This document shows positions 3,285 through 57,206 of a DNA stretch of 64,000 nt, piece by piece; position 1 is the stretch's first letter, and the number at the start of each line of letters is the position of its first letter. The translations under genes were made by a program, and so were the position numbers. The notes beneath the pieces are model-generated. The model had not been told where the DNA came from. It made no database searches and saw only the letters and a list, made by a program, of their open reading frames with translations. Source of the DNA: a virus (Duplodnaviria > Caudoviricetes); IMG/VR virus record IMGVR_UViG_3300028186_000155; one strand, written 5' to 3'.

Positions 3285-3291
3285 TAAATTA
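3285..3291 (-). promoter_or_regulatory. TAATTTA late-type promoter motif
   Basis: Same motif upstream of several structural genes; lies just downstream of a terminator. Confidence 0.5.
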
Positions 3292-15886: not shown

Positions 15887-17527
15887 TCAGTTCTCGGTGA
15901 ATGTGATGGAAGAGCCGAAATTGCGAATGTCTGCGGTCAGAGAAGCGCGACGTGCAGGAATGCTCGGATCAATCACGAAATCGAGGTTGATATCGTTGTT
16001 CGCGATATCTGCCGGGGAGTTGTTGCGGCTGTCACAAATGGTTTCCCAATCGTACAAACCACGGCCCTGTTTAACAGTGCGCGCTTCCGCGTCAACGATG
16101 TTTTTCAGCTGCTTGCGTTCGAAATCGTCAGCAGGGTTGAAAACGGACGGCAGGAACGCTTTGCGAATCATGGCCTTGATCCCGTTCACCAAACGACGAA
16201 CGTTCACGTTTTGGAAACCGCTGGCAAAGGTTTGCAGGGTCAGCTGTTCCATGATCACGTAACCACGGCCCGGAATGCGGCGCACGTAGTTGATTTGCGC
16301 TTGTTCCAGCGCATTGCGTTCTGGCAGCGAATATTTCTTCGAAAGATCCGTGACTTTCACTTGGCCGCGATTCAAACCGGCAGGCGCCCAGTAGTAGGCA
16401 CGCACACGGTCGGTGTACGCATATTGCGCAGCGACCATACCGGAAATCGGGCACCAGAATTTCTTACCCGAAACGTCATCGGTGACTTGCCCGCGTGGGC
16501 CGTACAGTGCCGAATAGCTGCTCGACAGGTTGAGGATATTTCGACGCCAGTTAACGGCGCGTGCAACTTCCTGCATATCGAACGGCAAATCCTGAATGGT
16601 GATTGCGTCACCACGGGATTCTGCAACGGCGTTCATGCGGCGCACGATTTGTTCGTTTTCGTAACCGCACGCAACCAGCATTTGCACCGCGAATTGGTCG
16701 GTATCTTCGATGCCTTCCCAAGCTGCGTTGATTTCTGCAATGGTTGCACGCTCGCCATCTTCGCCGCCGTCGAGGCGTTCGATGGTGGTGGTGCGAATTT
16801 CCACAGCCGGGCACAGGCTGTTGTTTTTGACCTTGATGTAGTTGGATTGCGAGTTCACCCGCGCCTCAACAAACATTTGGTTTCCTTCGCCGTCCAGTTC
16901 GTAAATCCGCGAACAGAAATACGATTCTACCGGAATGCTAGACGAACCTTTGTAGTTCAGGAAAACATCGAGGTAGAAATGGGTCGGGTCGTTGAATTCA
17001 CCAACTTCGGTGCCTTCCGGGTTAGCGGGGCGAATGCGAACGCTGATGATGCCAGACCATTCGCCGGGCGAGTTGGCGCAAACATAAAGCAGCGCGTTTT
17101 TCACACCAGCATCAGCGGCGGTGAAGCCCAGTACATCGAGGGGATTACCCAAAACGCCTTGCGGTTTATTGGTGCCATTATCCCAATTGACCAGCTTAAC
17201 GACCGGCACCAAAGCGCTGGTATCGTCAACCGACAGGTATGCCCCGGCGGTGCGTGCGGTCGCGGCGTTGACTGCACGTTTGATCCACATGGCGGTTTGC
17301 GCCAAAGTGTGTTCGGCACAGTGCATGCCAAAGCCGTATTTGGAATAGTTTTTAATGCCGAACTTTTCGCGCAGCACTTGTTTATCCGTTACATAAATCC
17401 AGTCGCTGGTAGAACCGCGAGGGGCTTCGATAACGGCGGATGCGATGGAGCTAACCACCGGGGAACCACGTTGACTTACGTCATTGTCCCGGTCGTAAAC
17501 ACCAGCGCTGGTGTTGGTGAAATCCAT
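15887..17527 (-). CDS. contractile tail sheath protein (T4 gp18-like)
   Basis: AGVY N-terminus, WAPAGLNRG, NVRRL, ICDSRNNSPADI motifs. Confidence 0.93.
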   Translation of the reverse strand: MDFTNTSAGVYDRDNDVSQRGSPVVSSIASAVIEAPRGSTSDWIYVTDKQVLREKFGIKNYSKYGFGMHCAEHTLAQTAMWIKRAVNAATARTAGAYLSVDDTSALVPVVKLVNWDNGTNKPQGVLGNPLDVLGFTAADAGVKNALLYVCANSPGEWSGIISVRIRPANPEGTEVGEFNDPTHFYLDVFLNYKGSSSIPVESYFCSRIYELDGEGNQMFVEARVNSQSNYIKVKNNSLCPAVEIRTTTIERLDGGEDGERATIAEINAAWEGIEDTDQFAVQMLVACGYENEQIVRRMNAVAESRGDAITIQDLPFDMQEVARAVNWRRNILNLSSSYSALYGPRGQVTDDVSGKKFWCPISGMVAAQYAYTDRVRAYYWAPAGLNRGQVKVTDLSKKYSLPERNALEQAQINYVRRIPGRGYVIMEQLTLQTFASGFQNVNVRRLVNGIKAMIRKAFLPSVFNPADDFERKQLKNIVDAEARTVKQGRGLYDWETICDSRNNSPADIANNDINLDFVIDPSIPARRASLTADIRNFGSSITFTEN

Positions 17528-43920: not shown

Positions 43921-45201
43921 TTAGGCGAATTTGGCTTTTGGTACTGCGCCACCAACTTTGGCTTTAGCCTTGGCGCCACCTTTGGCCGGGGCTTTCGCTT
44001 CGGCTGCGGGCTTTTTGGCGGCAGGTTTCTTAGCTGCTGGTTTTTTCTCGGCGGCTGGCTTTTTGGCCCCCGACGGTTTTTTGCTAGCTGGCTTTTCAGC
44101 TGCTGGCTTTTTCTCGGCGGCTGGCTTTTTGGCAGCAGGCTTTTTGGCAGCAGGCTTTTCAGCTGCTGGTTTTTTGCTGGCCGCTGGTTTCTTCGAAGCC
44201 GGTTTTTCAGCGGCTGGGGCAGCTACTTCCTTCGGCTTGTTCTTGCTACCAGCTGGGCGGCCCGGACCTTTTTTCACCGGAGCTTCAGCAGCTGGGGCTG
44301 CTGGAGTTTTCGGTTTGTTTTTCGAACCGACTGGGCGGCCCGGACCTTTTTTCACCGGAGCTTCAGCAGCTGGGGCTGCTGGAGTTTTCGGCTTGTTCTT
44401 GCTACCAGCTGGGCGGCCCGGACCTTTTTTCACCGGAGCTTCAGCGGCAGGTGCGGCAGCCGGGGCAGCGGCAGCAGCTGGTTTCTTAGCTGCTGGTTTT
44501 TTCGCGCCTGCTGGCTTTTTCTTGGCACCGCCACCGAAGTGTTTGTTGGCGATTGCGGCAACGCCATCGGCTTGCGCTTTCTTACCAACTTTGTCCACAT
44601 CGACAACGCGTTTGTGTTTGGTGCTGATCGGCTTCGCTTGGAAGTTGCTGATCATGTTTTTCAGGGAGAATTTCCCTTTCGACTTGATCTTCTTCAGCGC
44701 GGCTTTGTGAGTCGAAGTCGCCTTCACGCGCTCGGCTGCGAGAGCTTTACGTGCGTCGGCGTAACGGGCTTTTTCCTTCTGGCGCAGTTGTGCACGCGCT
44801 TGAGGGGTTTTGCCCTTGGTTTTGATCGCTAGCAGAGCTTTCTTGTGCTGGCTGGCCAGCGAGTCGGCTTTGCGGCTGATTTGAGCGCGGATTTGACGCT
44901 GCGCGTTGTGAGCATCGCGGCGCTTACCAGCAGCATGCTGACCGGAGTCACGCAGTTTGCGGCGTTTGATCCACGCGGCTTTGATCTTTTTCGCTTCAGC
45001 TTCGGTTGCACCGTGGCGCATGGCCTTGGTGAAAACGTTCTGCGCATGCATTTTCAGCTTTTCAGCCGGGGTCATGGCCTTGTAACGGGCGCGGGCCTCA
45101 CGGTTGATTTTGTGCTTGGTTTTCTTGCGGCGAGCTTTCGCCTTTTTGCGCTCGGTTTTAGCCGCTGCGCTGTTGTCCACTTGGACGGCTTTGTAGACCA
45201 T
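43921..45201 (-). CDS. histone H1-like DNA-binding protein with three AT-hook-like repeats
   Basis: K/A/P-rich, many KKPAA units, 3 x KKGPGRPxGSKNKPK; GAGGA RBS. Confidence 0.8.
   Translation of the reverse strand: MVYKAVQVDNSAAAKTERKKAKARRKKTKHKINREARARYKAMTPAEKLKMHAQNVFTKAMRHGATEAEAKKIKAAWIKRRKLRDSGQHAAGKRRDAHNAQRQIRAQISRKADSLASQHKKALLAIKTKGKTPQARAQLRQKEKARYADARKALAAERVKATSTHKAALKKIKSKGKFSLKNMISNFQAKPISTKHKRVVDVDKVGKKAQADGVAAIANKHFGGGAKKKPAGAKKPAAKKPAAAAAPAAAPAAEAPVKKGPGRPAGSKNKPKTPAAPAAEAPVKKGPGRPVGSKNKPKTPAAPAAEAPVKKGPGRPAGSKNKPKEVAAPAAEKPASKKPAASKKPAAEKPAAKKPAAKKPAAEKKPAAEKPASKKPSGAKKPAAEKKPAAKKPAAKKPAAEAKAPAKGGAKAKAKVGGAVPKAKFA
44231..44445. repeat. 78-bp coding tandem repeat (about 3 copies)
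   Basis: gggcggcccggaccttttttcaccggagcttcagc at 44255, 44333 and 44411. Confidence 0.9.
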
Positions 45202-45318: not shown

Positions 45319-46362
45319 TCAGAACCCAAGGACGTTTTTGGCTTTATGCACTTCTTTTAATGCCAGTTTGATTTGCTTTTGCGTCAAACCTTCGGCACCG
45401 AGGAATGATTCCAAACCGAATTCAGGGTCAATATCCGCCCGGTCGATTTTAATGGTATCCGCGTCCTCAATTGCTTTATCCTTATGGCCGGTATAAACAA
45501 TGCCGCCCGTAATATTCGGATATTGCAGCATAATATCTGCTGGCACCGGCACTTCTGGATCAACGTGCAGTTTATAGCGGATATTCGAATCGTGCTTGAG
45601 TTTCTTGAAATCGTTGAGGTCTGTAATGTGAATATTCAGCAGGGAAAAACTGGGTTTATTCTCAACGAATTTATGCTCTACTTCGATCTTGTCACCGATC
45701 AGTTTCACCCGCGCATGCACAAACCCTTTGGGCAGCGCTTCACCGAAGTTTTTCTGGAACGGGTTGCCACAATAAATGGCCCGTTTGGCTTTCATGTACT
45801 GGTATTGGTGGATGTGGCCGCTGATGGTGAAATCGTTTTTATGCGATTGCAATTCCTGTTTGGTTTTCAGGGTACGCCCGTTGTCACCAATGGCCCCTGT
45901 ATATTCGACGTGTGCCACGTTGAGTGCACCGGTCTTTTTCGACAGGGTTTTGAGCGCAGGGAAAGGCAACAGGTTGACCGGCACACCGTTGATTTCGATG
46001 CGCTCGGGTTTCAGGATGATTTGCAGGTTTTTGAATGCTTTGGTCTTGGTCAAACGTCGCATGAAATTCATGGACATTTTATCAATGTGTTCGAAGTCGT
46101 GGTTGCCCGCCACGTAAATGAACGTAAGCAGCGAGTCATATTTGTGGAACAGGTTGAACAGGTTTTGGTAGGTATCAAATGGCAGGTTGGGCGTATCGGA
46201 AATGTCGCCCGGAATGATCATGTATTTGATGCCGTTACTCAACGCGTACTGAATGATCTTTTCGGCCTCGGCCAGAATGCGTTCATCGCCATCTTGGAAA
46301 TGTTTGTTCAGGCCGGTGAGGTGCCAGTCCGAGGTGAAAACGGCTTCAAATTCTTTTGCCAC
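45319..46362 (-). CDS. sbcD: Mre11/SbcD-like nuclease (gp47-like)
   Basis: SDWHL, PGDISD, GNHD, AH, SGHIH, YCGNP motifs. Confidence 0.92.
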   Translation of the reverse strand: MAKEFEAVFTSDWHLTGLNKHFQDGDERILAEAEKIIQYALSNGIKYMIIPGDISDTPNLPFDTYQNLFNLFHKYDSLLTFIYVAGNHDFEHIDKMSMNFMRRLTKTKAFKNLQIILKPERIEINGVPVNLLPFPALKTLSKKTGALNVAHVEYTGAIGDNGRTLKTKQELQSHKNDFTISGHIHQYQYMKAKRAIYCGNPFQKNFGEALPKGFVHARVKLIGDKIEVEHKFVENKPSFSLLNIHITDLNDFKKLKHDSNIRYKLHVDPEVPVPADIMLQYPNITGGIVYTGHKDKAIEDADTIKIDRADIDPEFGLESFLGAEGLTQKQIKLALKEVHKAKNVLGF

Positions 46363-46371
46363 AATAGGTTC

Positions 46372-46680
46372 CTAGCGAGTCCAATTGAGTTCGAGTTTAT
46401 AACCCAGTTTTTCCGCAATGATGATCAGCACTTCGAGGTCGGCATTGACCAGCGATTCGTGTTCATCATCAGCGAAATCCGGGTGGAAATACGGCATGAG
46501 TTCCCGGCACAGAATGCCACCGATATTCAGGTAGGTTTTCTGCACGTAACGGCGTAGGCATTTGGCGCTGGTTTCTTTCTGGCCTTTGCACTGCGGGCGC
46601 GCCTGCCGGGACAATTCGTTGATTATGATGGCGTATAGTTCTGCCTTCATAGTGTTTACAGTTGTTGTCATGCTCGACAT
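46372..46680 (-). CDS. XRE/HigA-like HTH protein (start may be 46671 or 46650)
   Basis: MKAELYAII...DLEVLIIIAEKLGYKLEL C-terminal pattern. Confidence 0.45.
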   Translation of the reverse strand: MSSMTTTVNTMKAELYAIIINELSRQARPQCKGQKETSAKCLRRYVQKTYLNIGGILCRELMPYFHPDFADDEHESLVNADLEVLIIIAEKLGYKLELNWTR

Positions 46681-47108
46681 AACCCCTTTTCCAGTTTGCG
46701 CTCAACCTTCACTTGGAACGTGATGCTACGCTCTGCACGCGCAGGCAGCATGGAGAAAGCGAGGAAAACGTTACCGAGGTGTGCACGCCCAACCTTGTGG
46801 GCCTTACGGCGACCGCGCAGCCAGATGAATTTGATATCGCCGTCGTCTTTGTCCATCAGGCGCACCAGACAACGGTTTTTATCATCGTGAATTTCGTATT
46901 TGGTGCAGGCCTGAACGTTGACGTTTTTCAGTTCTTCCACCAGCCCTTGGTGCTGCATGTTGGCCACGAATGCTTGGCACTCGGCAACCATTTGTTGCGG
47001 CGACACTTTGAACAGGCTTTCGGTCAAAGATTCTTTGAGTTGCGCGCTGATTCTTTCTTGCAGCATGCGCACCGTTTGACGTACAACGATCCGATCAATT
47101 GGATGCAT
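46668..47108 (-). CDS. stand-alone tail-sheath C-terminal-domain-like protein
   Basis: DRIVVRQTVRMLQERI and FLAFSMLPARAERSITFQV resemble the sheath NVRRL and final strands; GGAGG RBS. Confidence 0.5.
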   Translation of the reverse strand: MHPIDRIVVRQTVRMLQERISAQLKESLTESLFKVSPQQMVAECQAFVANMQHQGLVEELKNVNVQACTKYEIHDDKNRCLVRLMDKDDGDIKFIWLRGRRKAHKVGRAHLGNVFLAFSMLPARAERSITFQVKVERKLEKGLCRA

Positions 47109-47448
47109 TTTGTGCGGCCTCCCGTGACATGCGGCGTTCTTTTGAGCGGCCCAGTTTCCACGCGGCTTCTACGATTGCTTGGTTGATATTGCCGGGAATT
47201 GGATCACGTGCAGTTCCCGCACCATAGCCCACGACGCCCCACATATCGTCATTGTTTTTGTGCTCTTTGCGGTAGGCCACAATCTGCTTGAACCCTTCCG
47301 CGAAATACACGTCAATTCGCAGGTACGTTTGCAGGGCCAAACAGTGGTCATTGTTGGTCAACGGTGCCCAGTCGATAGCCTCCATTTCTTCCTGCGTGCG
47401 ATCAGCTGCAACACCGGCCAAACGTTCCATTTCTTTGTTGCCCATCAT
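47095..47448 (-). CDS. hypothetical protein (phage ABA-sandwich-like)
   Basis: WAPLTNNDHCLAL..LRIDV...AIVEAA pattern. Confidence 0.45.
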   Translation of the reverse strand: MMGNKEMERLAGVAADRTQEEMEAIDWAPLTNNDHCLALQTYLRIDVYFAEGFKQIVAYRKEHKNNDDMWGVVGYGAGTARDPIPGNINQAIVEAAWKLGRSKERRMSREAAQNASN

Positions 47449-47771
47449 TTAATGTCCTTGAGGGTAAGCAACAGGCCAACCGGGGGATTGGCCGGGTCTT
47501 GAATATTGTTGATGAATGCAAAACGTTCCAGCGTCACAGCAGGCTGGAAACGGTCGAAGATTTCTTGCAGATTGTCACCGGGTGCCACGGTGTAAACCGC
47601 GAAGTCACGGGCGTTTACGCGTTCGAACCACATTTCCGTATAGATCCGCACGTGGTCGCTACAGGTTGCACAACGCGTAAAGAAAACGTCACGATCCAGT
47701 GGGTCCAATTGTGAGGAAATGCGCTCGATATCAGCTGCTGTTTTATGAATTTCTTCGATCAATGCATTCAT
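47445..47771 (-). CDS. hypothetical protein
   Basis: AAGGA RBS. Confidence 0.65.
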   Translation of the reverse strand: MNALIEEIHKTAADIERISSQLDPLDRDVFFTRCATCSDHVRIYTEMWFERVNARDFAVYTVAPGDNLQEIFDRFQPAVTLERFAFINNIQDPANPPVGLLLTLKDIK

Positions 47772-47780
47772 GCAGATTCC

Positions 47781-48401
47781 TTAACGGAGACGGATCAACT
47801 GACCGGGGAAAATCAGGTCAGGGTTTTCCAGTTTGTTGATGCGTGCGAGTTCGCGCCAGCAAATGCCGAAAGTGGCGCCGATTTGGGACAACGTGTCGCC
47901 TGCAACCACACGGCAGTAACCGAGTATCAGACACTGGATCATACCGGAATAGTTGCGCACGTTGGTCAGCACTTCCTGCGGCAACGACAGGTCTTCCTTG
48001 TCGATCAGTTTCTGAATAGTTTCAGGCAGATTGTCTGCAATAAAATCGTCAGACAGTGCCTTGGGTTCGGCTGGTTTCCACAGCTTGCAGTATTTCAACA
48101 CGTTCGGCACGTCGGCGGAATCAACAGGCAACACCACAAGGCAAGTTGGCTCGGCGTTGCAGATGGTGTTTTCGTGGCCCGCGTGATGAATCAGCGTTTC
48201 CTGAATTTTCAGGAATTCGCGTTGAGTTGCACGCACCACAACCTTGCGGAAAGATTCGTCAAACCATTTGAAATAATGGGCACGTTGGGCGCCGTCGAGG
48301 CAGGTGAACTTGTCGTGTGCAGTCAGCACCGAATGCGCGACCAGTGTAGGCACCATGTAATCGGGCGCGTCTTCACGTACAGCGATGTACATTTTCAACA
48401 T
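47781..48401 (-). CDS. PTH2-like peptidyl-tRNA hydrolase domain fused to a C-terminal LysM
   Basis: KMYIAVRED..VAHS..W...FRKVVV...TCLVVLP; YCRVVAGDTLSQIG..FG..WRELARINKLENPDLIFPGQLI. Confidence 0.75.
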   Translation of the reverse strand: MLKMYIAVREDAPDYMVPTLVAHSVLTAHDKFTCLDGAQRAHYFKWFDESFRKVVVRATQREFLKIQETLIHHAGHENTICNAEPTCLVVLPVDSADVPNVLKYCKLWKPAEPKALSDDFIADNLPETIQKLIDKEDLSLPQEVLTNVRNYSGMIQCLILGYCRVVAGDTLSQIGATFGICWRELARINKLENPDLIFPGQLIRLR

Positions 48402-48784
48402 TTTGGGAGTCCATGACAGAAAGAAACTTCGTGTTTTTTCGCGTAGACGTGGGCCAGCCGACGACTACGGAACCACAGTTGAATCATCGGGGCCTTGGTG
48501 AACGTGACGTATGCCCCTTTGCGCCCACTCTCGACCGTGTAACGCGGTGCCGTGTTGTGTTCCGTGATCAGCTGCGCCCAATCCTGCAAAAACTTCAGCA
48601 TTTTCGAATCAGGATTTTCAATGGCTTCGCACGTCGATTCCATGGGCGCTGGGGAGTTTGCCCAATCCATGCGCTGGATCTTGAACGGTTGAAAACTCAT
48701 ACCGTGCGGCGCGTTTTCGAAATTGACCGTGAACTCTTCGGGCCGTTTGCCGTAATCGGAAAATCCATCTGCCACGAAAATCAC
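48395..48784 (-). CDS. hypothetical protein with a segment reminiscent of tail-tube proteins
   Basis: GTGA overlap start; TCEAIENPDSKMLKFLQDW. Confidence 0.5.
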   Translation of the reverse strand: MIFVADGFSDYGKRPEEFTVNFENAPHGMSFQPFKIQRMDWANSPAPMESTCEAIENPDSKMLKFLQDWAQLITEHNTAPRYTVESGRKGAYVTFTKAPMIQLWFRSRRLAHVYAKKHEVSFCHGLPKC

Positions 48785-49056
48785 GTGCGGATTCCTTCTT
48801 TCAACACCTGTTCGATGTTGAGGTCGGCGCACTTGAGCAATTCGATCAGATCGTCATAGTTGAAGCGGTCGATATGCCCGCTCAACAAATCCTGCAACCG
48901 GCCATTAGAAATCCAGAGCTTCTGACAGATTACTTCTGGATTCTGGCCCCAGCTTTTGATTTCACGAACAAGGCGGCGCATCAGGAAAGAGCGCAGACGC
49001 ATTGCAGGAACTTCATCGGCAGGCAGCAAATGTTCCCAAACGCAATGGTTATTCAT
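48781..49056 (-). CDS. XRE/HigA2-like HTH protein
   Basis: LRSFLM...ICQKLWISNGRLQDLLSGHIDRFNYDDLIEL. Confidence 0.75.
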   Translation of the reverse strand: MNNHCVWEHLLPADEVPAMRLRSFLMRRLVREIKSWGQNPEVICQKLWISNGRLQDLLSGHIDRFNYDDLIELLKCADLNIEQVLKEGIRT

Positions 49057-49385
49057 TTTTCAGGCTTCCTGTATACGTCGGTAATCAGGTCGGTGCGCGT
49101 AATGTGCGGAATGGCACCCGGCTTGATGGTTTCGCTCAAAATGAGATGCGTGTGTTCCGGCGTTTCTTCAACGACTATCGGATACGGACCTTCACCGAAC
49201 ACGCGCTGTTCCCCGGCAATCAACTCAGATGAAATTCCCAAACTTTCGTACATGCGCGCCTGAAGCTGTTGTGCCTCAGCTTCACCCCACGTAACCCAGC
49301 CACGTGTCGGACCCTTTTCGGCAGGGACCACAATGGCCCCAGTTTCGTCAGGTTCTGCCTGCGAAATATCCTGTTCAATGATCAT
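49053..49385 (-). CDS. small protein starting with a tail-sheath N-terminal motif
   Basis: IIEQDISQ...GAIVVPAEKGP; GAGG RBS. Confidence 0.6.
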   Translation of the reverse strand: MIIEQDISQAEPDETGAIVVPAEKGPTRGWVTWGEAEAQQLQARMYESLGISSELIAGEQRVFGEGPYPIVVEETPEHTHLILSETIKPGAIPHITRTDLITDVYRKPEK

Positions 49386-49560
49386 CTGATTTTTCCTCGA
49401 TTATTTCGCCGGTTTTTGCATCGCGTGGCACGTACCACTGGCGATCATTCGGCAATTCCCATCCGGCAGGCAGTGTGATATCGATTTTCAACATGTTGTT
49501 TTCGATATCTTCCGGGCTGTTGTTGGTTTCGTCGCAAATCACTTCCCAATCATGCGGCAT
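49375..49560 (-). CDS. 61-aa tail-sheath C-terminal fragment
   Basis: DWEVICDETNNSPEDIENN versus sheath DWETICDSRNNSPADIANN; GAGG RBS. Confidence 0.75.
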   Translation of the reverse strand: MPHDWEVICDETNNSPEDIENNMLKIDITLPAGWELPNDRQWYVPRDAKTGEIIEEKSDDH

Positions 49561-49795
49561 GTTTGTTTCCTCGGCGTCGTGCGAGCATTTCGCGTGCGGT
49601 TTCCGGGTGCAGTTCGAAAATGTTCAGCGGCCTGCACCGTGTCAAATGGTGGGGTTTATATTTGGTTGGGAACCACTCACCTCGGTACATGGAAAATTCG
49701 AACACTACACGCCCACGGCGGCTGTAGAACATTTCGCTAATGCCTTTGGAAATAACGTGGGTTGCAGTGCGTGGGGATCGAGAAATGCCATTCAT
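49550..49795 (-). CDS. hypothetical basic protein
   Basis: GAGG RBS; ATGA overlap. Confidence 0.6.
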   Translation of the reverse strand: MNGISRSPRTATHVISKGISEMFYSRRGRVVFEFSMYRGEWFPTKYKPHHLTRCRPLNIFELHPETAREMLARRRGNKHAA

Positions 49796-50505
49796 TGTTC
49801 GGCGGCCCCTCGGTTGATAGCGCGGATGTACCGCATTTCGTAGGCGCTGATTTTGAATTTGTGTGCCACTTCGTCTTCCTCTCCGTCCATTTGCAGGGCT
49901 TCGCGGTAGATGCCCACGGTTTCCGTGCTCAGCAATTCCACCAAACGTTCGGCCTGTTTGTCTGTGAGGTAAACGGTGCGGCGCAGCTTTTCAATTCGGT
50001 TATTCAGCTGCCGGTAAGTTTCTTTAGACGCCAGCCATTTGCAGGCCAATTGCCGGACCGGAAGCTGGTGTGTTTCCGATGGCATGGTGTAACACCACGT
50101 CATGAAGTTGGTGAAGAAAGTTTGTTGCGATGCAGCGTGTTTCTTCGCGTGCAACACCACATCGAATTTGCGGCGCTGGCCCGTCACTTCCTTGGCCGGT
50201 GGAATCCCCTTGAAGTCGATCAAGGTAAAGCCGTCAACGTGGAAGTCTTCAGCCTCTTTGAAATCAACCGGAATCAAATCGTGAGGTGCCAGTGAAATGG
50301 GATCGTCGCAGACGTAGCAAATGCAGCCCGCTTTGGCTGCGCGTTCCCGGTAGGTTTCGAAACTCACAACACTAACAAAGATCAGGTGTTTGCGTGCTTC
50401 GAAATCTGGACCGAGGATTGCGATTTGTGAGCGCTGCACCCCGGATTGGCGCAGGTGTACCAGAACTTTATCGGGTGATGTGTGTGCGAAACCGTAGGCG
50501 ATCAT
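49792..50505 (-). CDS. hypothetical protein
   Basis: 237 aa; possible C-terminal HTH (EVAHKFKISAYEMRY). Confidence 0.7.
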   Translation of the reverse strand: MIAYGFAHTSPDKVLVHLRQSGVQRSQIAILGPDFEARKHLIFVSVVSFETYRERAAKAGCICYVCDDPISLAPHDLIPVDFKEAEDFHVDGFTLIDFKGIPPAKEVTGQRRKFDVVLHAKKHAASQQTFFTNFMTWCYTMPSETHQLPVRQLACKWLASKETYRQLNNRIEKLRRTVYLTDKQAERLVELLSTETVGIYREALQMDGEEDEVAHKFKISAYEMRYIRAINRGAAEQ

Positions 50506-51104: not shown

Positions 51105-51406
51105 TGAACGTCACTCAGCTTTGCACCCGCTTTGCACAGGTGATAAGTGATGTTGGTGGTGTCTGCCAAATCCATCGCAAATATCACCGAGGCCTCCACC
51201 TTGTCTTCGTGCCAGAAGATGCCCAGCAAGCAAGGGAAAATGCTAGGCATTTCATCCGGGTTGTTGACGTAGGGTAGTGCCATGTAATCCACGTCGTCTT
51301 CGTTGTCGGTGTAGATGGCGTTCAGAAACTTTTCGATATCGTGAACGCCATTAACGATTTGTGCGTAGACGTTTTCAGACAGCATCGTATCGAACATTGG
51401 AAACAC
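51101..51406 (-). CDS. hypothetical acidic protein (start may be 51397)
   Basis: Operon ORF. Confidence 0.6.
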   Translation of the reverse strand: MFPMFDTMLSENVYAQIVNGVHDIEKFLNAIYTDNEDDVDYMALPYVNNPDEMPSIFPCLLGIFWHEDKVEASVIFAMDLADTTNITYHLCKAGAKLSDVQ

Positions 51407-53684
51407 CCTTGAATTTTTCTACCGTGACGTAAGAGCATTCCGGGTGCAGGTGCTTGCCCTTCTGCGTGATGATGAACACGTGAGGGACCAGCTTGCGCAG
51501 GAACGGCACATAACGTTCTACGAAAAGGTTGGTAGTCGCTTGGTCCATGTGCGCATCTGGTTCGTCCAGAATTGCCAGATTAACCCGGCGATCATCTTTG
51601 GCCATGATTACGCAGGCGAGGAAGTGCAGTAGGCGGAAACTATCGGATTCAGCACCCGACAATTCGCGAACATCCGACACATTACCTTGGCCCCGGTCAA
51701 CCATGATGTGCACGCCGTCGTCTTTGGCATTGACCGTAAACTTGAACGGCTCGGCAAAGATCAGCTGTGCGTATTTGTTGTAATTCTGCTGAAGGCCGTA
51801 GACAATTTCGTGCATGGCGTTCAGCTTCAGGCCCTTGTTGCTGTAGGCCTTGGACAGAATCTTAAACCGCTTCATTTTCTTGATCAGCGGCGCGAACTCT
51901 TCCACCTTCTGGCTCGCCTCTTCGCGCTGCTTTGACAGCAGTTTGAATTCAGCTTTCAGCGAGCTATAGCGCACGGTGATTTTCTGCGCTTTGGTGTATT
52001 TCTTTTCGACCTTTTCCAACTTGGCTTCGACTTCAGCCAGACGCTTGAGAATGTTGTCGTCTTCCGGTACTTCGTCGTACTCTTCCAGTCGCCCTTTGAG
52101 ACGGGCCACTTCATCCAAAATTTCTTTTTGCTCTTCGATCTTTTCCATCGAAATCGTGCAGCGACGTGCTGGCGGTTTCGGTTTCTTCAGATCGTTAAGC
52201 TGGGCCATGATTTCTTCCCAGCGCCCGGCGTTCTTGATGTTTTCTTCCAGCTTATCAATTTCGCCGTTGATCACCTTGATCCGCTTGCGAGCCGCGTAGA
52301 AAGCGCGTTCGTCAAACTTCAGGGCTTTGATTGTTTCGGTGTTTTCTTGCTTGGTGATTCGAATTTCCAGCGCGTGGATCATCGAGTGCGCTTTGCCCTT
52401 GCGTTTCTTGGCTTGGGCAATGGTTTTTTCCAGATCCTTGACATTGATTGCCTGCATGCAGGTTGGGCAGTTGCCGCCGTCATGGTCATGCAGCAAGTCG
52501 GCAAGTTTCATCGTGGTTTTTGCCGTGGTGTACTCTTCTTTCAGAGCCTCCATCGGGTCCACGCCTTGCTTGTTGCACTTGCTCAGGAATTTACGCAGAT
52601 CCGGGTCCACGTGATCATCAAGGTTTTCCAGTTCGCGCACAGCCGCGTCGTGCTTGTCGCGGACCTTTTCCAGCTTGCGGTCTTGCTCTTCGAGGTGCTT
52701 GAGTTCGGTGCGCAGTTTCTTCAGTTGGAATTCTGCTTTCTTGCCACCGCCCTCAACGCCGCCCAGTTCCGCCAGCTTGGCTTCCCATTTCTTGACCTTG
52801 CGTTGGTATTCCTCAAGGTCATCGTCGTATTTTTCTTGTTCCTGATGCAGCTTGTACTGGTCGCGCAGTTCGGCCTTGTCGTACTTGAGTTTCTTTTGCA
52901 GCTTTTTCAGCTTTTGCTTGGTGGTGCTGTAGAACTCGACCTGCTTGGCCAGACTCTTCAGTTCCTGCCGTTGCGACTGGAGTTTGGTAACTTTTTTGGA
53001 CTGGGTTTTGACTACTTCTTTCGCCTCAGCCAGTTCCTTATCCAGCTTTTTGTTCCAGCCGTTTTTATTCAGCTGGTCATTGATGTTCATCAGCTGGTGC
53101 GTGAACGCGTCCGACTTGTTCTGCGCTACCTTGACCTCTTCGATACGCTTGTCGAAATAACGACGCAGCACGTCGAATTGATCAAGGCGCCAGACTTGGC
53201 TGATGTAGGACATGCGGGCGCGGGGCGTGCCGTACAAAAATTCGAGTTTCTTCTGCGATTGCAGGTGCACATACGAATACCATTCGTCTTGTGTCAGCGG
53301 CAGAATTTTCTCGATTTGAATACGGGCGTCACCTTGCCGCCCGAACTTCATGTCCTCTCCGTCACGCAGCACTTTGTAACCACCGGCCTGCTGGCGAATG
53401 GTCCACTTGTGCCCGAGGTTTTCCACGTCGATTTCGATGAACGAACCTTTCGAGTGGATGCGGTTTTTCTTTTTCGTATCTGCCATTGGCGTCTGCTCGA
53501 AAGCGACGTTAGGCAGCATGGAAAACATGAGGGATTTACCTGCGCCGTTGTTCTGCTCTTTCGAGATTCGCGAATCGCGGTTATGGCCGGTAACAGTGGT
53601 CAGGCCGCAATTGTTGGTGAAATCAAATTCGCCCATCTTGTACGAAACGATTCCGCCGAAACGGCTACAGGTAATGTTGATCAT
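51375..53684 (-). CDS. sbcC: Rad50/SbcC-like ATPase (gp46-like)
   Basis: NGAGKS, Q-loop, coiled coils, CPTC zinc hook, LSGAE, ILDEP, IITQ. Confidence 0.93.
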   Translation of the reverse strand: MINITCSRFGGIVSYKMGEFDFTNNCGLTTVTGHNRDSRISKEQNNGAGKSLMFSMLPNVAFEQTPMADTKKKNRIHSKGSFIEIDVENLGHKWTIRQQAGGYKVLRDGEDMKFGRQGDARIQIEKILPLTQDEWYSYVHLQSQKKLEFLYGTPRARMSYISQVWRLDQFDVLRRYFDKRIEEVKVAQNKSDAFTHQLMNINDQLNKNGWNKKLDKELAEAKEVVKTQSKKVTKLQSQRQELKSLAKQVEFYSTTKQKLKKLQKKLKYDKAELRDQYKLHQEQEKYDDDLEEYQRKVKKWEAKLAELGGVEGGGKKAEFQLKKLRTELKHLEEQDRKLEKVRDKHDAAVRELENLDDHVDPDLRKFLSKCNKQGVDPMEALKEEYTTAKTTMKLADLLHDHDGGNCPTCMQAINVKDLEKTIAQAKKRKGKAHSMIHALEIRITKQENTETIKALKFDERAFYAARKRIKVINGEIDKLEENIKNAGRWEEIMAQLNDLKKPKPPARRCTISMEKIEEQKEILDEVARLKGRLEEYDEVPEDDNILKRLAEVEAKLEKVEKKYTKAQKITVRYSSLKAEFKLLSKQREEASQKVEEFAPLIKKMKRFKILSKAYSNKGLKLNAMHEIVYGLQQNYNKYAQLIFAEPFKFTVNAKDDGVHIMVDRGQGNVSDVRELSGAESDSFRLLHFLACVIMAKDDRRVNLAILDEPDAHMDQATTNLFVERYVPFLRKLVPHVFIITQKGKHLHPECSYVTVEKFKGVSNVRYDAV

Positions 53685-56008
53685 GGTTTTTCCAGATACT
53701 CTCGGATTTCTTTGAGTTGATTAGCTTGCGTGTACTGGTGTTCGAAGCGCAGGCGCTCTTCCATCATTTGCAGGGTCATTACCCATTGTGGATTTGGCGG
53801 GTCCATGCGGATGAAACCGGGTCCACGCGGACCGATATGACCGCGTGAACCTGTTGGACCATCAGGCAGGCGGCCCGAGCGGTATTCTTCAATCACTTCT
53901 GGTTTCTCCGGGTCTTCGGTGGTCGTGTCGTACAGGTCAGGATCGCAGATTTTGCAACCGCCGCCAAAATCGCAACCGCATTCGACGGTGCTCGAATCGA
54001 TCAGATCATCCGGGGTGATTTTTGCGTTGGCTGTGATCAAAATGTCTTCACCGTAACCACTAACAATTTCTTCGCTACCGTAGTCGAGGCTTTTGCTCAC
54101 GATTTCTTTGATCAAACGATCTTCGCTTTCCATGATTTGATCAAGCACTTCAGCCGCAACCTTTTCCAAATCGACGGGTTCGTCATTGGAGTGGTCACGA
54201 CCACAACGGCACAATTTCGGTTCTGGTTCGTTGGTTTCTTCCGAAGCTTTATCGTCGGCACCAACCCACACATGCACCATGTCGGAATCAGGGATTTCCT
54301 GATACAGCGTCACGTCGGCGCCGAGTGCCTGTGCTTTCTCGAAGTTTTCGCGAGTCATTGCAACAATGCCGGTGCTCAGAACGCCGATTTCAGGTTGCGA
54401 TTTGGCGGCCTGAATTTCTTCATCGTTCAGGCTGTGTGCATCGGCTGCTTCGTGTTCCAGTTCGTCTACAGGAATCCCCAACTCTTCAGCCACATCGGGA
54501 CTCATGATAACCTCAGTCAGTGGAATGGCCGAAGTTTGTTTGATTGCGTCAGCCAAAACAAAACCGTCTTTGTCCGTGGCCGCGCCGCCCAAACTTTGCA
54601 CGAAACGCTCGGCTGCTTTGCGCAGACGATCATGCGCCGTCTCTTCGGTGTTTACGGTTTCTTCAGGCTCGCCGGGGTCGCCCATTTTCAGGTTAACGGT
54701 GGCGTCCGGGTGCAGGATCAACCAGTCGTTTTCCTTGTCGTGTTTCGCGATGTTGGTAATCAGCAACGCTTCGATCACGGTATTGCGCTTGGATGGATCG
54801 AGTTTGAAGCGGTTGATAAATACGTCGGTCTTGACGCCGCCCATGAGGAAACGTTTGATGTTTTCCGGGTCGAGTTCTTCAATCTTTTTGAAGCCGGTGA
54901 CTTGTGTGCCCATGGCAATCTGCCGTTTTTCTTTCCGGTTTGGATAGTACGGAATGTTGGCTTTGATCATGCTCGACGGGTTTTTGGTATCGTAACCCAT
55001 GTCGTACAGGTAGCTAAGCACCTCAGCTGGCGGCAGGCGTACCATACGCACGATTTCGAACAGGTTGTACGGTGCGGGAATCAGACGGCAGTAATCGTCC
55101 AGAATTTTGAACGATTCTTTGGCCTCCACGATTCGCAGCACGATGAATTTGTGGGTTGGTGCGTAGTCATTGCGCGGGTCTACGAATTCTTCGCCGTCCC
55201 ATGCAGTCATGGCGCCGGATGCAGCTACGTCTTCGAAAACGATATCGAACAATTCACGCAGCATCGCATGGTTATCGCTCAGCTTTGTGAAGCATTCTTC
55301 CGTGGTGAAGGCACCGTCGCATTTGAGGATTTCCGCACGCAATTCCTGTTCGGTCAGCGTGTGGAATTCTTCAGCAACTTTGGGTTCTGGTTCAGCTGGC
55401 GTATCACGGGCCACAATTTCTTTGGCAATTTTGGTCGCCACTTCAACCTTCAACGCCTCGGCCAGTGCATCAGAAGCTTTACGCTGGTACAACGTGCCGA
55501 TTTTTACCACGGAACCTTCACCGGTCAGCAGGCGCAGCAGCTGGCCAACAGAGTGACCAGATTTCATGCCGAAATGCTTGGCGATTTCTGCCGCTGTGCG
55601 TTGTGCACCATCCGACAAAAAGGCCAGCACGTCACCGCGTGTAGCCCGTGATTCATCGACTTTGATTTGAGGTTTCTTTTCCGCACTTTCGACCGCTGCT
55701 TTAACCGGCGCAGGTTTGGTTCGCAACTGGTCTTCTGCACGATCTACCGCAGCAGCCTCACGGCGGCGCTCAGCTGCCTTTTCCACACGGTCGAGTTCTG
55801 CATCCGTATCGTCTTTTTTGAACGATTCGGAAATGGTCAACCGGTTGTCTTCACGATGCAAATACCCGAAACGCATCAGGCGCTCAAGGGCGCGAGTCAT
55901 TTGGGTATGCTGGGTGCGCAGCTGGTCGCCGTAGTAGGTCAGCGTGCGCCCCGGTTCCTGCTGTACCGCGTAAACCAGATTTGCCTCAAGTGCGGAAAGA
56001 TCCTTCAT
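53681..56008 (-). CDS. large multi-winged-helix protein
   Basis: At least two wHTH (MTRALERLMRFGYL; TAAEIAKHFGM..VGQLLRLLTGEGSV); acidic C-half; short GxxGxx run. Confidence 0.6.
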   Translation of the reverse strand: MKDLSALEANLVYAVQQEPGRTLTYYGDQLRTQHTQMTRALERLMRFGYLHREDNRLTISESFKKDDTDAELDRVEKAAERRREAAAVDRAEDQLRTKPAPVKAAVESAEKKPQIKVDESRATRGDVLAFLSDGAQRTAAEIAKHFGMKSGHSVGQLLRLLTGEGSVVKIGTLYQRKASDALAEALKVEVATKIAKEIVARDTPAEPEPKVAEEFHTLTEQELRAEILKCDGAFTTEECFTKLSDNHAMLRELFDIVFEDVAASGAMTAWDGEEFVDPRNDYAPTHKFIVLRIVEAKESFKILDDYCRLIPAPYNLFEIVRMVRLPPAEVLSYLYDMGYDTKNPSSMIKANIPYYPNRKEKRQIAMGTQVTGFKKIEELDPENIKRFLMGGVKTDVFINRFKLDPSKRNTVIEALLITNIAKHDKENDWLILHPDATVNLKMGDPGEPEETVNTEETAHDRLRKAAERFVQSLGGAATDKDGFVLADAIKQTSAIPLTEVIMSPDVAEELGIPVDELEHEAADAHSLNDEEIQAAKSQPEIGVLSTGIVAMTRENFEKAQALGADVTLYQEIPDSDMVHVWVGADDKASEETNEPEPKLCRCGRDHSNDEPVDLEKVAAEVLDQIMESEDRLIKEIVSKSLDYGSEEIVSGYGEDILITANAKITPDDLIDSSTVECGCDFGGGCKICDPDLYDTTTEDPEKPEVIEEYRSGRLPDGPTGSRGHIGPRGPGFIRMDPPNPQWVMTLQMMEERLRFEHQYTQANQLKEIREYLEKP

Positions 56009-56012
56009 TTCT

Positions 56013-57206
56013 TTATTCGCTCTCTGCGATGAATTTCCCAACGGCGGAATAGAACGCAACTGGTTCATCCACGCTTGCGCTATTGATTTTGGCTTCGATT
56101 TCGCTCAGCAGATTCTGGATCAGCACCAGCGATGTGATGCTGGTTTTCTTGATACCTTCCTGCTTGGCGAGTGCCGCGAACAGCTTGCCGTTGTACGGGG
56201 TGTATTTGTTGGTGCCGGTGTGTTCGCCAATGCGGAAATCTACCAGCCAACGGGTTTTGTTGATCAGGCCACGCACACCGCCGCAAGTCTTGACGGCCTG
56301 CACCACTTTGACCAAATCTTTCTTGTAGATCGATGCCAGCAGGTGCGCCGAGTATTCATCGAGGTTGGCTTCGATTTCAACAAACGAACTCAGGTCATCC
56401 GGGTTGAACTTCTTACCGGACGCCAGCACCGACAGGAAAATGTCCAGCTTGGATACCGCTTCACGCAGCGAACCGTTGCTAGATTCCGCGATGGTGGTAA
56501 CAGCTTTTTTCGCGTCTTTCTTGATCGGGAAACCTTCGGCCTCGGCAATGGTGCACAGCCGATCAACCATGGTTGGAATTTCGATTTGCTTCAGGCGGAA
56601 ATGCGTGCCACGACTAACCAGCGCTTTGTTCATGTTTTCCGGGTTAGTGGTGCACATGATCCAGATAGTGTTGGGGCCGGGGTTTTCCGTCGAGGTCAGC
56701 AACGCTTTTTCGGACTGATCGCGCAGGGTGTGCACTTCGTCCACGATGATTACGCGCTTGCGGAAGGTAGGGGCGTTGTTGGCAGCGGATACCAGCGCAC
56801 GAATTTCTGCAATGGTGCCGTTAACTGCCGCGTCGTGATAGGTCACGTCGGGATGCTTGCGGAATTTGCAGCTATGGCATTTGCCACACAGGTTCAAATT
56901 CTCACAGTTGATTTGCCGGGCGAGGATTTGCGCGAACGAAGTTTTGCCGCAACCATAATGCCCGGAGAACAGGAACACCGCAGGCACCTTGCCGCGTTTG
57001 AACATACCTTCGATTGCGTTGGCCGTTTGGTCTTGGCCCACAACTTCGGACAGCTTCGAAGGGCGATACAGGTTGGCCAGCTGGGAAGTATCCAGCGTCA
57101 CAGGCCCGCGTTCCTTTTTAACTTTTTTCTTGGCGCTTTTGACCGCTTCTTCAGTGTCGGTCTTGAATGTCTTTTTCTTGGTCTTTACTACTTTCTCTTT
57201 TGCCAC
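56013..57206 (-). CDS. dnaX: clamp loader, DNA Pol III gamma/tau-like
   Basis: YRP..EVVGQ, GHYGCGKT, C..CGKCHSC zinc module, DEVH, TTN, SR, GSLR. Confidence 0.92.
   Translation of the reverse strand: MAKEKVVKTKKKTFKTDTEEAVKSAKKKVKKERGPVTLDTSQLANLYRPSKLSEVVGQDQTANAIEGMFKRGKVPAVFLFSGHYGCGKTSFAQILARQINCENLNLCGKCHSCKFRKHPDVTYHDAAVNGTIAEIRALVSAANNAPTFRKRVIIVDEVHTLRDQSEKALLTSTENPGPNTIWIMCTTNPENMNKALVSRGTHFRLKQIEIPTMVDRLCTIAEAEGFPIKKDAKKAVTTIAESSNGSLREAVSKLDIFLSVLASGKKFNPDDLSSFVEIEANLDEYSAHLLASIYKKDLVKVVQAVKTCGGVRGLINKTRWLVDFRIGEHTGTNKYTPYNGKLFAALAKQEGIKKTSITSLVLIQNLLSEIEAKINSASVDEPVAFYSAVGKFIAESE

Follow-up and report, generated by a model that had tools for sequence, protein, structure and literature searches.

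A sheath-derived beta-hairpin and a diverged sheath C-terminal domain in the sbcC-sbcD interval of a Lu11-like jumbo phage

What are pieces of a tail sheath doing among the replication genes of a phage? The question is raised by an island of small genes in the window, a 64,000-nt stretch of DNA whose source is a giant, Pseudomonas-type, Lu11-like jumbo phage of 314 kb. A preliminary description of this DNA had singled out five of the island's ORFs as stand-alone fragments of tail proteins, and had proposed that they act as decoys for host sensors or as poisons of rival contractile machines. Two of the five, o9 and o2, hold up as tail-like, while o8, o6 and o5 do not. By sequence comparison, these two genes derive from the sheath "handshake" domain, and they may act in tail assembly control or mimicry.

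Setting of the island

The island is flanked downstream by a gene for an sbcD-like nuclease (45319-46362) and upstream by a gene for an sbcC-like ATPase (51375-53684), and the interval between them holds 15 small, tightly packed genes, all of which, like both flanks, lie on the minus strand. The five ORFs are present on this strand with the coordinates given below; they overlap or abut, and most have ribosome-binding sites of the AGGA or GAGG type, that of o5 being weak. The reported position of the island, between sbcD and sbcC and about 30 kb from the true tail sheath gene, agrees with the coordinates. The sheath gene (15887-17527, minus strand) encodes paralogue 1, a protein of 546 aa that is the reference for the motifs discussed here; the phage has a second sheath paralogue, whose gene is found beyond the window (G000 93.7-95.6 kb).

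The candidate late motif TAATTTA, not noticed here in the preliminary description, is indeed absent from the island when copies are mapped across the window: there are six, all on the minus strand, and four of the six lie 29-73 nt upstream of gene starts, that of the sheath gene among them. The island is contiguous with the genes for the clamp loader, sbcC and sbcD in what amounts to a replication/recombination operon, and the sole strong pair of a terminator and a promoter-like sequence is found upstream of it, at about 57.4 kb. No sigma-70-type promoters were found within the island, where the count is below that of shuffled sequence. In this phage supergroup the space between sbcC and sbcD serves as an accessory slot with variable content. 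The idea that the island is compositionally foreign was rejected, its GC content being 0.51-0.52 and its flanks alike.

A sheath hairpin and a diverged sheath domain

The clearest piece of sheath in the island is o9 (49375-49560, minus strand), a protein of 61 aa with a GAGGA ribosome-binding site. A conserved beta-hairpin motif of the C-terminal domain of sheaths (PF17482; domain IV of T4 gp18, domain I of Mu gp39 and P1 gp22) occupies its N-terminal half (30 residues), and its final 30 residues are lineage-specific. Residues 3-30 are identical to residues 492-519 of the phage's own sheath at 15 of 28 positions (54%, E 6e-10), with a Smith-Waterman z-score of 14.5 against a baseline of shuffles, and the alignment of the o9 family matches that of the sheath with a probability of 96.4% in hhalign (E 1.1e-9). 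The family also matches residues 603-622 of T4 gp18 (E 1.4e-4, profile against solved structures) as well as two sheath PHROGs, the PHROG match being found in all seven of the o9-family members scanned except P0007. The signature of the hairpin at the sheath C-terminus, ICD-x2-NN-x-P ... L-x-[VI]-D, is present in o9, and its earlier identification as a sheath C-terminal piece is borne out by these matches. Co-folding of the sheath and o9 alignments gave a score of 0.01, with the fold of the partner uncertain, a result that speaks neither for nor against binding.

The second piece, o2 (46668-47108, minus strand; 146 aa), is a diverged sheath C-terminal domain of two helices and flanking strands, with no N- or C-arms. 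Its residues 1-136 align over 108 columns with sheath 428-535, taking in the helices, the hairpin strands and the next strand (hhalign probability 89.7%, E 1.8e-6), whereas o6, used as a negative control, aligns with the sheath at a probability of 0.08%. The top match of o2 among PDB profiles is a sheath (E 0.05). These results support the assignment made in the preliminary description, although the score against Pfam PF17482 (Phage_sheath_1C; 19.4 bits, E 1e-3) is under the cut-off of 26.9. Structural comparison made use of an AF2 model with a pLDDT of 72. In VIA-align the phiKZ sheath ranked first (Z 6.3) and three further sheaths followed at Z 5.0-5.7, so that four sheath C-domains stand within the top 15 matches, all in a Z range that is common and at noise level for this tool; in Foldseek the model had no match in the PDB at E 1e-3 or better.

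Neither protein has the set of parts that makes a functional sheath subunit, as o9 aligns by profile solely to sheath residues 493-520 and o2 to 428-535 alone, leaving the arms and outer domains uncovered in both. Unlike the sheath C-terminal domain, they stand alone, and unlike sheath genes they are encoded in a replication operon and not in the tail module. A further departure from the sheath is seen in o2, where a conserved basic strand-strand-helix insert (residues ~78-110) takes the place of the hairpin loop. The basic character and conservation of this insert suggest nucleic-acid binding by o2 instead of arm binding.

A basic module resembling this insert, with the order strand-strand-strand-helix, forms the C-terminal part of o6 (48395-48784, minus strand; 129 aa from a GTG at 48784), a lineage-restricted protein. 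The likeness of the two modules is weak (hhalign E 0.039). The suggestion that o6 contains a tube-like segment did not survive: no tube profile matched it, there were no family matches and no BLAST match to any ORF of the genome, and a fold search gave a best Z of 2.6 on an AF2 model of low confidence (pLDDT 55). Only two ORFs match the T4 gp19-like tube family (PF06841), and these lie outside the window beside the second sheath gene, at G000 95.8-96.6 kb. Searched exhaustively against 1.84 billion proteins, the o6 profile returned 10 matches at E 1e-3 or better; four of these were long proteins aligned over short stretches only, and the other six were small members of its own family.

A hairpin-HTH gene in three pieces

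Downstream of the hairpin, o7 (48781-49056, minus strand; 91 aa) is a stand-alone HTH_37 DNA-binding domain that passes the PF13744 cut-off of 27 with 29.5 bits, as the fused relatives described below also do, and matches phrog_2339 (E 1e-9). In Lu11 a single ORF of 166 aa, Lu11_0114, spans the equivalents of o9, o8 and o7 as hairpin, linker and HTH_37. The middle piece, o8 (49053-49385, minus strand; 110 aa), is collinear with residues ~33-90 of Lu11 gp114 apart from two insertions. This protein had been taken for the N-terminal arm of the sheath, an assignment that fails: its best hhalign match is sub-threshold (probability 3.6%, E 0.012) and covers 20 columns on sheath residues 26-45, off the arm, its pairwise z-score against the sheath is 1.6, and no Pfam or PHROG family matches it even at E 10.

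These alignments show that o9, o8 and o7 descend from a single gene that was later broken in three, which is a new result. The view that the island's ORFs are separate fragments does not apply to these three. Of the five ORFs first singled out, o9 and o2 are truly sheath-derived. In three relatives (L011, L012 and L014) the hairpin is joined straight to the HTH in ORFs of ~130 aa. In an SbcCD tree the split forms make up one clade (support 82/95) with the fused forms outside it, and a first split, in the window phage's clade, was followed by a second in the window lineage; the hairpin-HTH fusion is probably ancestral. A frameshift or sequencing error behind the o9/o8 split was considered and rejected, as the identical split into 61, 110 and 91 aa is carried by 16 contigs from several samples. 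The o9 and o8 frames differ where they overlap, and inspection of the overlap by eye found no canonical slippery heptamer.

Because the o9/o8/o7 series ends in HTH_37, regulation is favoured at least as much as a decoy or poison role. HigA2-type antitoxins combine a C-terminal HTH with an N-terminal segment that binds the partner and folds as it does so. The fused proteins of the Lu11 gp114 and L011 types likewise consist of a short N-terminal beta-forming segment and an HTH_37 domain. They differ in that the N-terminal segment is recognisably sheath-derived and that no toxin gene is adjacent, the RelE, HigB and Gp49-like families being absent from all ORFs of the island; in the window phage, moreover, the protein is split over three genes.

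Conservation and selection

Among seven related loci the core ORFs of the island are intact, with identities of 28-88%. Homologues of o9, o2, o5 and o7 occur in all seven and of o6 in four, at 28-82% identity, and a partial counterpart of o8 was found in L009 only. The omega of o2 is ~0.11-0.27, and for the hairpin motif pN is 0.13-0.41 against a pS of 0.29-1.0 or more, values that place the genes under purifying selection.

The motif has changed less than its surroundings. Between Lu11 and the Dickeya phage JA29 it is 76% identical, while SbcD, compared between the window phage and JA29 (a comparable phylogenetic distance), is only 42% identical. The relative P0007 has lost the loop and kept both strands, which fits a strand-pairing role. 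With tblastn against phage genomes, stand-alone hairpin proteins were found only in Lu11, HRDY3 and the Dickeya Salmondvirus phages, the Salmondvirus version being a protein of 85 aa (JA29_015) encoded in a replication region. Since the degree of SbcD identity marks Salmondvirus as a distant relative, JA29_015 is no independent invention.

Searches for other stand-alone hairpin proteins stayed within this circle. A region-restricted search returned only kin of Lu11, and in a scan of viral contigs the motif at each of the best 80 loci lay within a full-length or contig-truncated sheath ORF. Homologue searches with o2 and Lu11 gp114 found close kin only, a BFVD search found small Lu11 and PaBG proteins only and no sheaths, and the o2 and o6 families are limited to the Lu11-like phage group.

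A possible handshake role and its alternatives

In the assembled sheath, the two-stranded sheet of the C-terminal domain takes up the N-arm and the C-arm of different subunits to give a four-stranded sheet, and a tail terminator closes off the final ring by an equivalent interaction (PMC10304247, PMC11915804). The reading that we favour, at a probability of about one in three, is that o9 and o2 would control or sense assembly by binding sheath arms through beta-sheet augmentation. The motif in o9, which in the sheath lies 27-54 residues short of the C-terminus, would by this placement correspond to the putative arm-receiving sheet. The replication operon would express the free hairpin and the arm-less domain ahead of the tail genes or together with them (a timing taken from gene order only). 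Both would attach to the arms of sheath subunits soon after these are made and hold back premature or aberrant polymerisation of both sheath paralogues; the fused protein would additionally couple the HTH regulator to the level of free sheath. There is a mechanistic precedent in terminators or capping proteins (P1 gp24, Mu gp37) and initiators (T4 gp25/TssE), small proteins that complete the four-stranded handshake of the sheath by beta-augmentation. These proteins differ, however: they are structural, their genes lie in the tail module, they are not known to share ancestry with the sheath hairpin, and the strands that they supply are arm-like, whereas o9 would supply the hairpin side. The replacement of the hairpin loop of o2 by a basic one suggests a function other than arm binding, and the HTH fusion is equally compatible with a hairpin that serves oligomerisation or partner binding unrelated to tails.

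The last point leads to an alternative that is nearly as probable, namely that the modules were co-opted with no link to the tail. The hairpin would then be a partner-binding or oligomerisation element of an HTH_37 regulator, and o2 and o6 would bind nucleic acid through their shared basic module, in the control of early-to-middle expression or of recombination. The replication and recombination setting favours this, together with the HTH_37 score above its curated cut-off, the probable ancestry of the fusion and the confinement of the o2 and o6 families to one phage group. So does the Arg/Lys-rich strand-strand-helix module itself, which is conserved in o2 and o6 and recurs in the C-terminal parts of the o9-like ORFs of HRDY3, L009 and L010 and, in L011, L012 and L014, in additional ORFs of the island. 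That said, residues conserved among sheaths, T4 gp18 included, have been kept while neighbouring genes fall to 30-50% identity, and drift would be expected if the sheath context were irrelevant; the HTH has no toxin-like gene beside it, and the likeness between the o2 and o6 modules is, as noted, weak.

Gene expression is governed by assembly intermediates in the flagellar and type-III secretion checkpoints. A phage counterpart, which we consider unlikely, would have as its ancestral gene an assembly-sensing transcription factor whose handshake hairpin reads the pool of unpolymerised sheath, with the split forms and o2 as free caps or chaperones of the same circuit.

The decoys envisaged in the preliminary description would be expressed early and occupy a host sensor of the sheath C-terminal domain, blocking the response to real sheath. 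DSAD1 is a phage protein that blocks the tube-sensing DSR2. The island shares with that pair only the concept of an accessory phage protein tied to recognition of a tail component, as no sheath sensor is known and the tail sheath figures in a 2026 survey as no more than a possible target, still unproven, of STAND sensors (PMC13581612). A decoy could well look like what the island holds, namely separate parts of the sheath's most conserved region, maintained by purifying selection in a non-late operon and a variable accessory slot, and the motif lies nearer to the consensus of sheaths in general than a sequence copied recently from the resident one would have to. Against a decoy stand the fusion to a DNA-binding domain, which would be unexpected, the loss from o2 of the conserved loop, the most plausible part for a sensor to read, and the lack of tail likeness in three of the five supposed mimics. 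The decoy reading is improbable.

Poisons of rival contractile machines, such as those of co-infecting myophages or tailocins, would cap foreign sheath arms; this shares its structural logic with the arm-binding reading, and the motif does resemble the sheaths of distant myophages. Among solved structures, however, the o9 profile picked up neither R-type pyocin nor T6SS sheaths, even with the threshold relaxed to E 10, and the nearest sheath is the phage's own, so that a poison would strike its producer too. The proposal is very improbable. Strongly disfavoured, finally, is the idea that the ORFs have no function and are what is left of a third sheath gene after decay, or that they are frameshift artefacts: the pieces are short, out of order and in part overlapping in different frames (o9/o8), but intact core ORFs in seven loci (with o8 partly matched in one), pN far below pS, a split shared by 16 contigs, a ribosome-binding site for each ORF and a non-late operon uphold the original argument against a single decayed gene.

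Implications for sheath biology

If docking to sheath arms is real, o9 and o2 would be the first known non-structural, early or middle phage proteins to use the conserved sheath handshake, with roles in chaperoning, timing or sensing tail assembly, or in sheath mimicry. They would open a way to learn how polysheath is avoided in large myophages that have two sheath paralogues, and would offer a natural minimal peptide of ~30 residues directed at a feature that phage tails have in common with tailocins and further contractile injection systems. Should the function prove unrelated, the locus is still a clear case of a virion-protein domain that was co-opted, joined to a regulator and later divided. 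These ideas are directly testable, as Lu11 is in culture.

LysM proteins of the island

The fifth supposed tail fragment, o5 (47781-48401, minus strand; 206 aa), had been called a baseplate-style LysM protein. The LysM is there (PF01476, 39 bits against a cut-off of 20.9), but it is an ordinary one, placed C-terminally after a PTH2-like domain (phrog_5822, E 3e-49). Its neighbour o4 (47445-47771, minus strand; 108 aa) ends in a weak LysM that scores 19.8 bits against the same cut-off of 20.9. In relatives, o5 is annotated as an "endolysin".

Layout of the locus

The window corresponds to the reverse strand of positions 26118-90117 in a 314,224-bp virus record that carries direct terminal repeats and whose nearest cultured relatives are the Pseudomonas phages HRDY3 (313 kb) and Lu11 (280 kb). 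All of the genes discussed here are carried on the minus strand. Gene order is headed by a terminator and promoter-like pair at about 57.4 kb, after which come a clamp-loader gene, a gene for a 795-aa MarR-containing protein (53681-56068), sbcC (51375-53684), an island of fifteen small ORFs (o15 to o1), and sbcD (45319-46362). The GC content of the island is that of its flanks. In line with the preliminary description, neighboring small ORFs overlap or abut one another. AGGA/GAGG-type ribosome-binding sites precede most of them, the site of o5 being weak.

The candidate late motif of that description, TAATTTA, is indeed missing from the island. The window holds six copies (at 3285, 3404, 17592, 39528, 43838, and 45274), all on the coding (minus) strand, and four lie 29-73 nt upstream of gene starts, namely those of the sheath gene and three others. 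Because six copies are not above chance for the window, the argument rests on their positions rather than their number, and this placement is compatible with a late-promoter element.

The true sheath gene lies at 15887-17527 and is one of two diverged paralogues, about 33-36% identical, the other being found in the 93.7-96.6 kb region of the full virus record. Both paralogues are kept in the relatives HRDY3, G001, and Lu11.

A sheath hairpin on its own

Clear evidence for a sheath-derived piece within the island comes from o9 (49375-49560), which had been proposed as a sheath C-terminal fragment and is confirmed as such by both pairwise and profile matches. Residues 3-30 of o9 align with residues 492-519 of the phage's own sheath (15 of 28 identical, E 6e-10), and the alignment scores 14.5 standard deviations over shuffles. 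A comparison of the island ORFs with all ORFs of the genome yielded no other significant cross-match. For o9, and likewise for its homologues in Lu11, three related loci (L009, L010, and L011), and the more distant phage JA29 (JA29_015), the two best PHROG matches are tail-sheath families, and in every case the matches sit at near-identical profile positions. Aligned with the two sheath paralogues of this phage group by hhalign, the o9 family gives a probability of 96.4% (E 1.1e-9). Its profile also matched residues 603-622 of T4 gp18 in the PDB, the sole other match there being insignificant (E 1.2), and tblastn located the same segment in the sheaths of T4-like cyanophages and a Thermus phage. 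The motif falls within the sheath C-terminal domain, 27-54 residues from the C-terminus of the protein, and we infer from this position that it would be the arm-accepting hairpin of the sheath.

An arm-less sheath C-terminal domain

A second claim, that o2 (46668-47108) represents the sheath C-terminal domain, also holds, though the domain is diverged and the case is built from four partly independent signals that concur. The Pfam family Phage_sheath_1C is matched at E 1e-3, under the curated cut-off. The best PDB match of the o2-family profile is a tail sheath (E 0.05), in an alignment spanning the conserved helix that opens the domain. Compared with the sheath alignment by hhalign, the nine-member o2 family gives a probability of 89.7% (E 1.8e-6), with residues 1-136 mapping onto sheath residues 428-535; the o6 family, used as a negative control, reaches 0.08%. 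Finally, the AF2 model of o2 (pLDDT 72) has the phiKZ sheath C-terminal domain as its top structural match among 48,161 chains (Z 6.3), with three more sheath C-domains in the top 15 (Z 5.0-5.7). These Z values taken alone are in the noise range and a Foldseek search with the model found nothing, so the case rests mainly on the profile comparison. Both sheath arms are missing from o2, and the site of the hairpin loop is taken by an insert of about 30 residues, predicted to form strand-strand-helix and bearing an invariant arginine/lysine-rich stretch.

One gene in several pieces

Judged from their sequences, o9, o8, and o7 are fragments of one ancestral gene. In Lu11 a single annotated ORF of 166 aa (Lu11_0114) contains the hairpin motif, then a linker collinear with o8, then an HTH_37 domain collinear with o7. 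In three uncultured relatives (L011, L012, and L014) hardly anything separates the hairpin from the HTH, and the fused ORF measures about 130 aa, while in HRDY3, L009, and L010 the hairpin part is an ORF of its own, 180-190 aa long, with a separate HTH gene after it. The window shows one further split, into 61, 110, and 91 aa. An assembly error behind this three-gene arrangement is ruled out, since 16 contigs from several samples carry it. In a tree of SbcC plus SbcD the split forms make up one clade (support 82/95), with Lu11 and the L011 group outside, as would be expected if an ancestrally fused gene had undergone fission once. The direction of change, from fused to split, is likely rather than proven because the root of this tree hangs on the very long branch of PaBG.

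Conservation and distribution

For the seven core island ORFs (o2, o5, o7, o9, o11, o12, and o15), each of the seven related loci has an intact homologue, with identities of 28-88%. The remaining small ORFs occur in some of these loci only, and the only counterpart of o8 is a partial one in L009. Synonymous sites approach saturation and non-synonymous differences are low, omega for o2 being about 0.11-0.27 in those pairs with estimable dS. The hairpin motif (pN 0.13-0.41 versus pS 0.29-1.0 or more) is kept far better than its surroundings. Between Lu11 and JA29_015, an 85-aa protein of Dickeya Salmondvirus phages, the identity of the motif is 76%, whereas the SbcD proteins of JA29 and the window are only 42% identical. 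In one relative the loop has been deleted and both strands are retained. The gap between sbcC and sbcD is filled by different genes in PaBG and JA29, which marks it as a variable accessory slot. The gap set of Lu11 is the minimal one, with the fused gene, o5, and o2 among its members.

The sheath hairpin and next strand form the last ~38 residues of JA29_015 (L015:2863-3120). This gene is surrounded by replication genes, its neighbors being of the primase-like and Dam methylase kinds. Four Salmondvirus phages have conserved it, and the annotation of JA11 assigns the region to the methylase.

Fragments that are not tail-like

The other three ORFs that had been assigned to the tail did not bear out that origin. 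For o8, read earlier as the sheath N-terminal arm, the best alignment falls on sheath residues 26-45, which form the first core strand and not the arm. It covers 20 columns at a profile probability of 3.6%, the pairwise z-score is 1.6, and no family was matched even at E 10, so that any likeness of the o8 sequence to sheath is suggestive at most. The supposed tube-like segment, o6, has neither family matches nor sheath likeness. Its profile drew ten matches from 1.84 billion proteins, of which only six were small family members, and its model is poor save for a C-terminal three-strand-plus-helix module. The real tube genes, two ORFs of the T4 gp19 family, adjoin the second sheath paralogue outside the window (93.7-96.6 kb of the full record). 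The ORF described as a baseplate-style LysM protein, o5 (47781-48401), encodes a PTH2-like domain (phrog_5822, E 3e-49; Pfam PTH2, 22.6 bits versus a cut-off of 23) and, after it, an ordinary LysM. A weak LysM is carried by o4.

A basic strand-strand(-strand)-helix module with the core aromatic-R-[SG]-x-R-[LK]-A-[RHK] recurs at residues ~70-110 of o2 (46757-46900) and at the C-terminus of o6 (48398-48540). It is also seen in the C-terminal parts of the o9-like ORFs of HRDY3, L009, and L010, and L011, L012, and L014 have it in additional island ORFs. The o2-o6 pairing has weak hhalign support (E 0.039). One possibility is that the module is a nucleic-acid-binding domain specific to this lineage, which has spread through the island.

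Possible roles of the sheath-derived modules

In published tail structures, the N-arm of one sheath subunit pairs with the C-arm of its neighbor, and the paired arms then attach to the two-stranded sheet that domain I provides in the next ring; at the last ring, the same sheet is completed by terminator proteins (PMC10304247; PMC11915804). The preferred reading, to which we give a probability of about one in three, is that the free hairpin and the arm-less o2 domain would grip the arms of unpolymerized sheath subunits through beta-augmentation. Such binding would restrain or time sheath assembly, and the fused form would link the pool of free sheath to a DNA-binding domain.

Nearly equal to this, and just as tentative, is the co-option of these modules for an unrelated regulatory or nucleic-acid-binding role, which the HTH and the recurrent basic module favor, the weakness of the o2-o6 likeness in hhalign counting against it. 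The preliminary description had envisaged early-made mimics that occupy host sensors of virion proteins, which is improbable, or a poison blocking rival contractile machines, which is more doubtful still: no sheath sensor is known, neither idea predicts the HTH fusion, and both were built in part on o8, o6, and o5.

The literature searched contained no account of sheath-hairpin proteins that stand alone, nor of such a hairpin being fused to an HTH. The sheath domain, HTH_37, and the mimicry of the handshake by terminators are already known; their combination and genomic context are new. Since Lu11 is culturable, these hypotheses are directly testable.

Other genes of the locus

The best-conserved island gene by far is o11 (49792-50505; 237 aa; phrog_18876, unknown function), at 60-88% identity across all relatives, which in Lu11 lies directly before the hairpin-HTH gene. 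The 795-aa protein upstream of sbcC has its MarR-type winged helix at the N-terminus, and Lu11 has a conserved counterpart listed as hypothetical. Relatives of o5 are annotated as endolysin, and no signal peptide is apparent by eye. It is unusual for a cytoplasmic-type hydrolase (peptidyl-tRNA hydrolase 2) to be joined to a peptidoglycan-binding module, and this combination could be related to tRNA-targeting host toxins. Beyond sbcD, a 426-aa protein rich in lysine, alanine, and proline (43921-45201) contains three near-identical repeats with a PGRP-x-GSKNKPK-like unit, resembling histone H1, AlgP, and AT-hook sequences. A TAATTTA lies 73 nt upstream of its gene start. The probable role of the protein is in DNA binding or packaging at the late stage.
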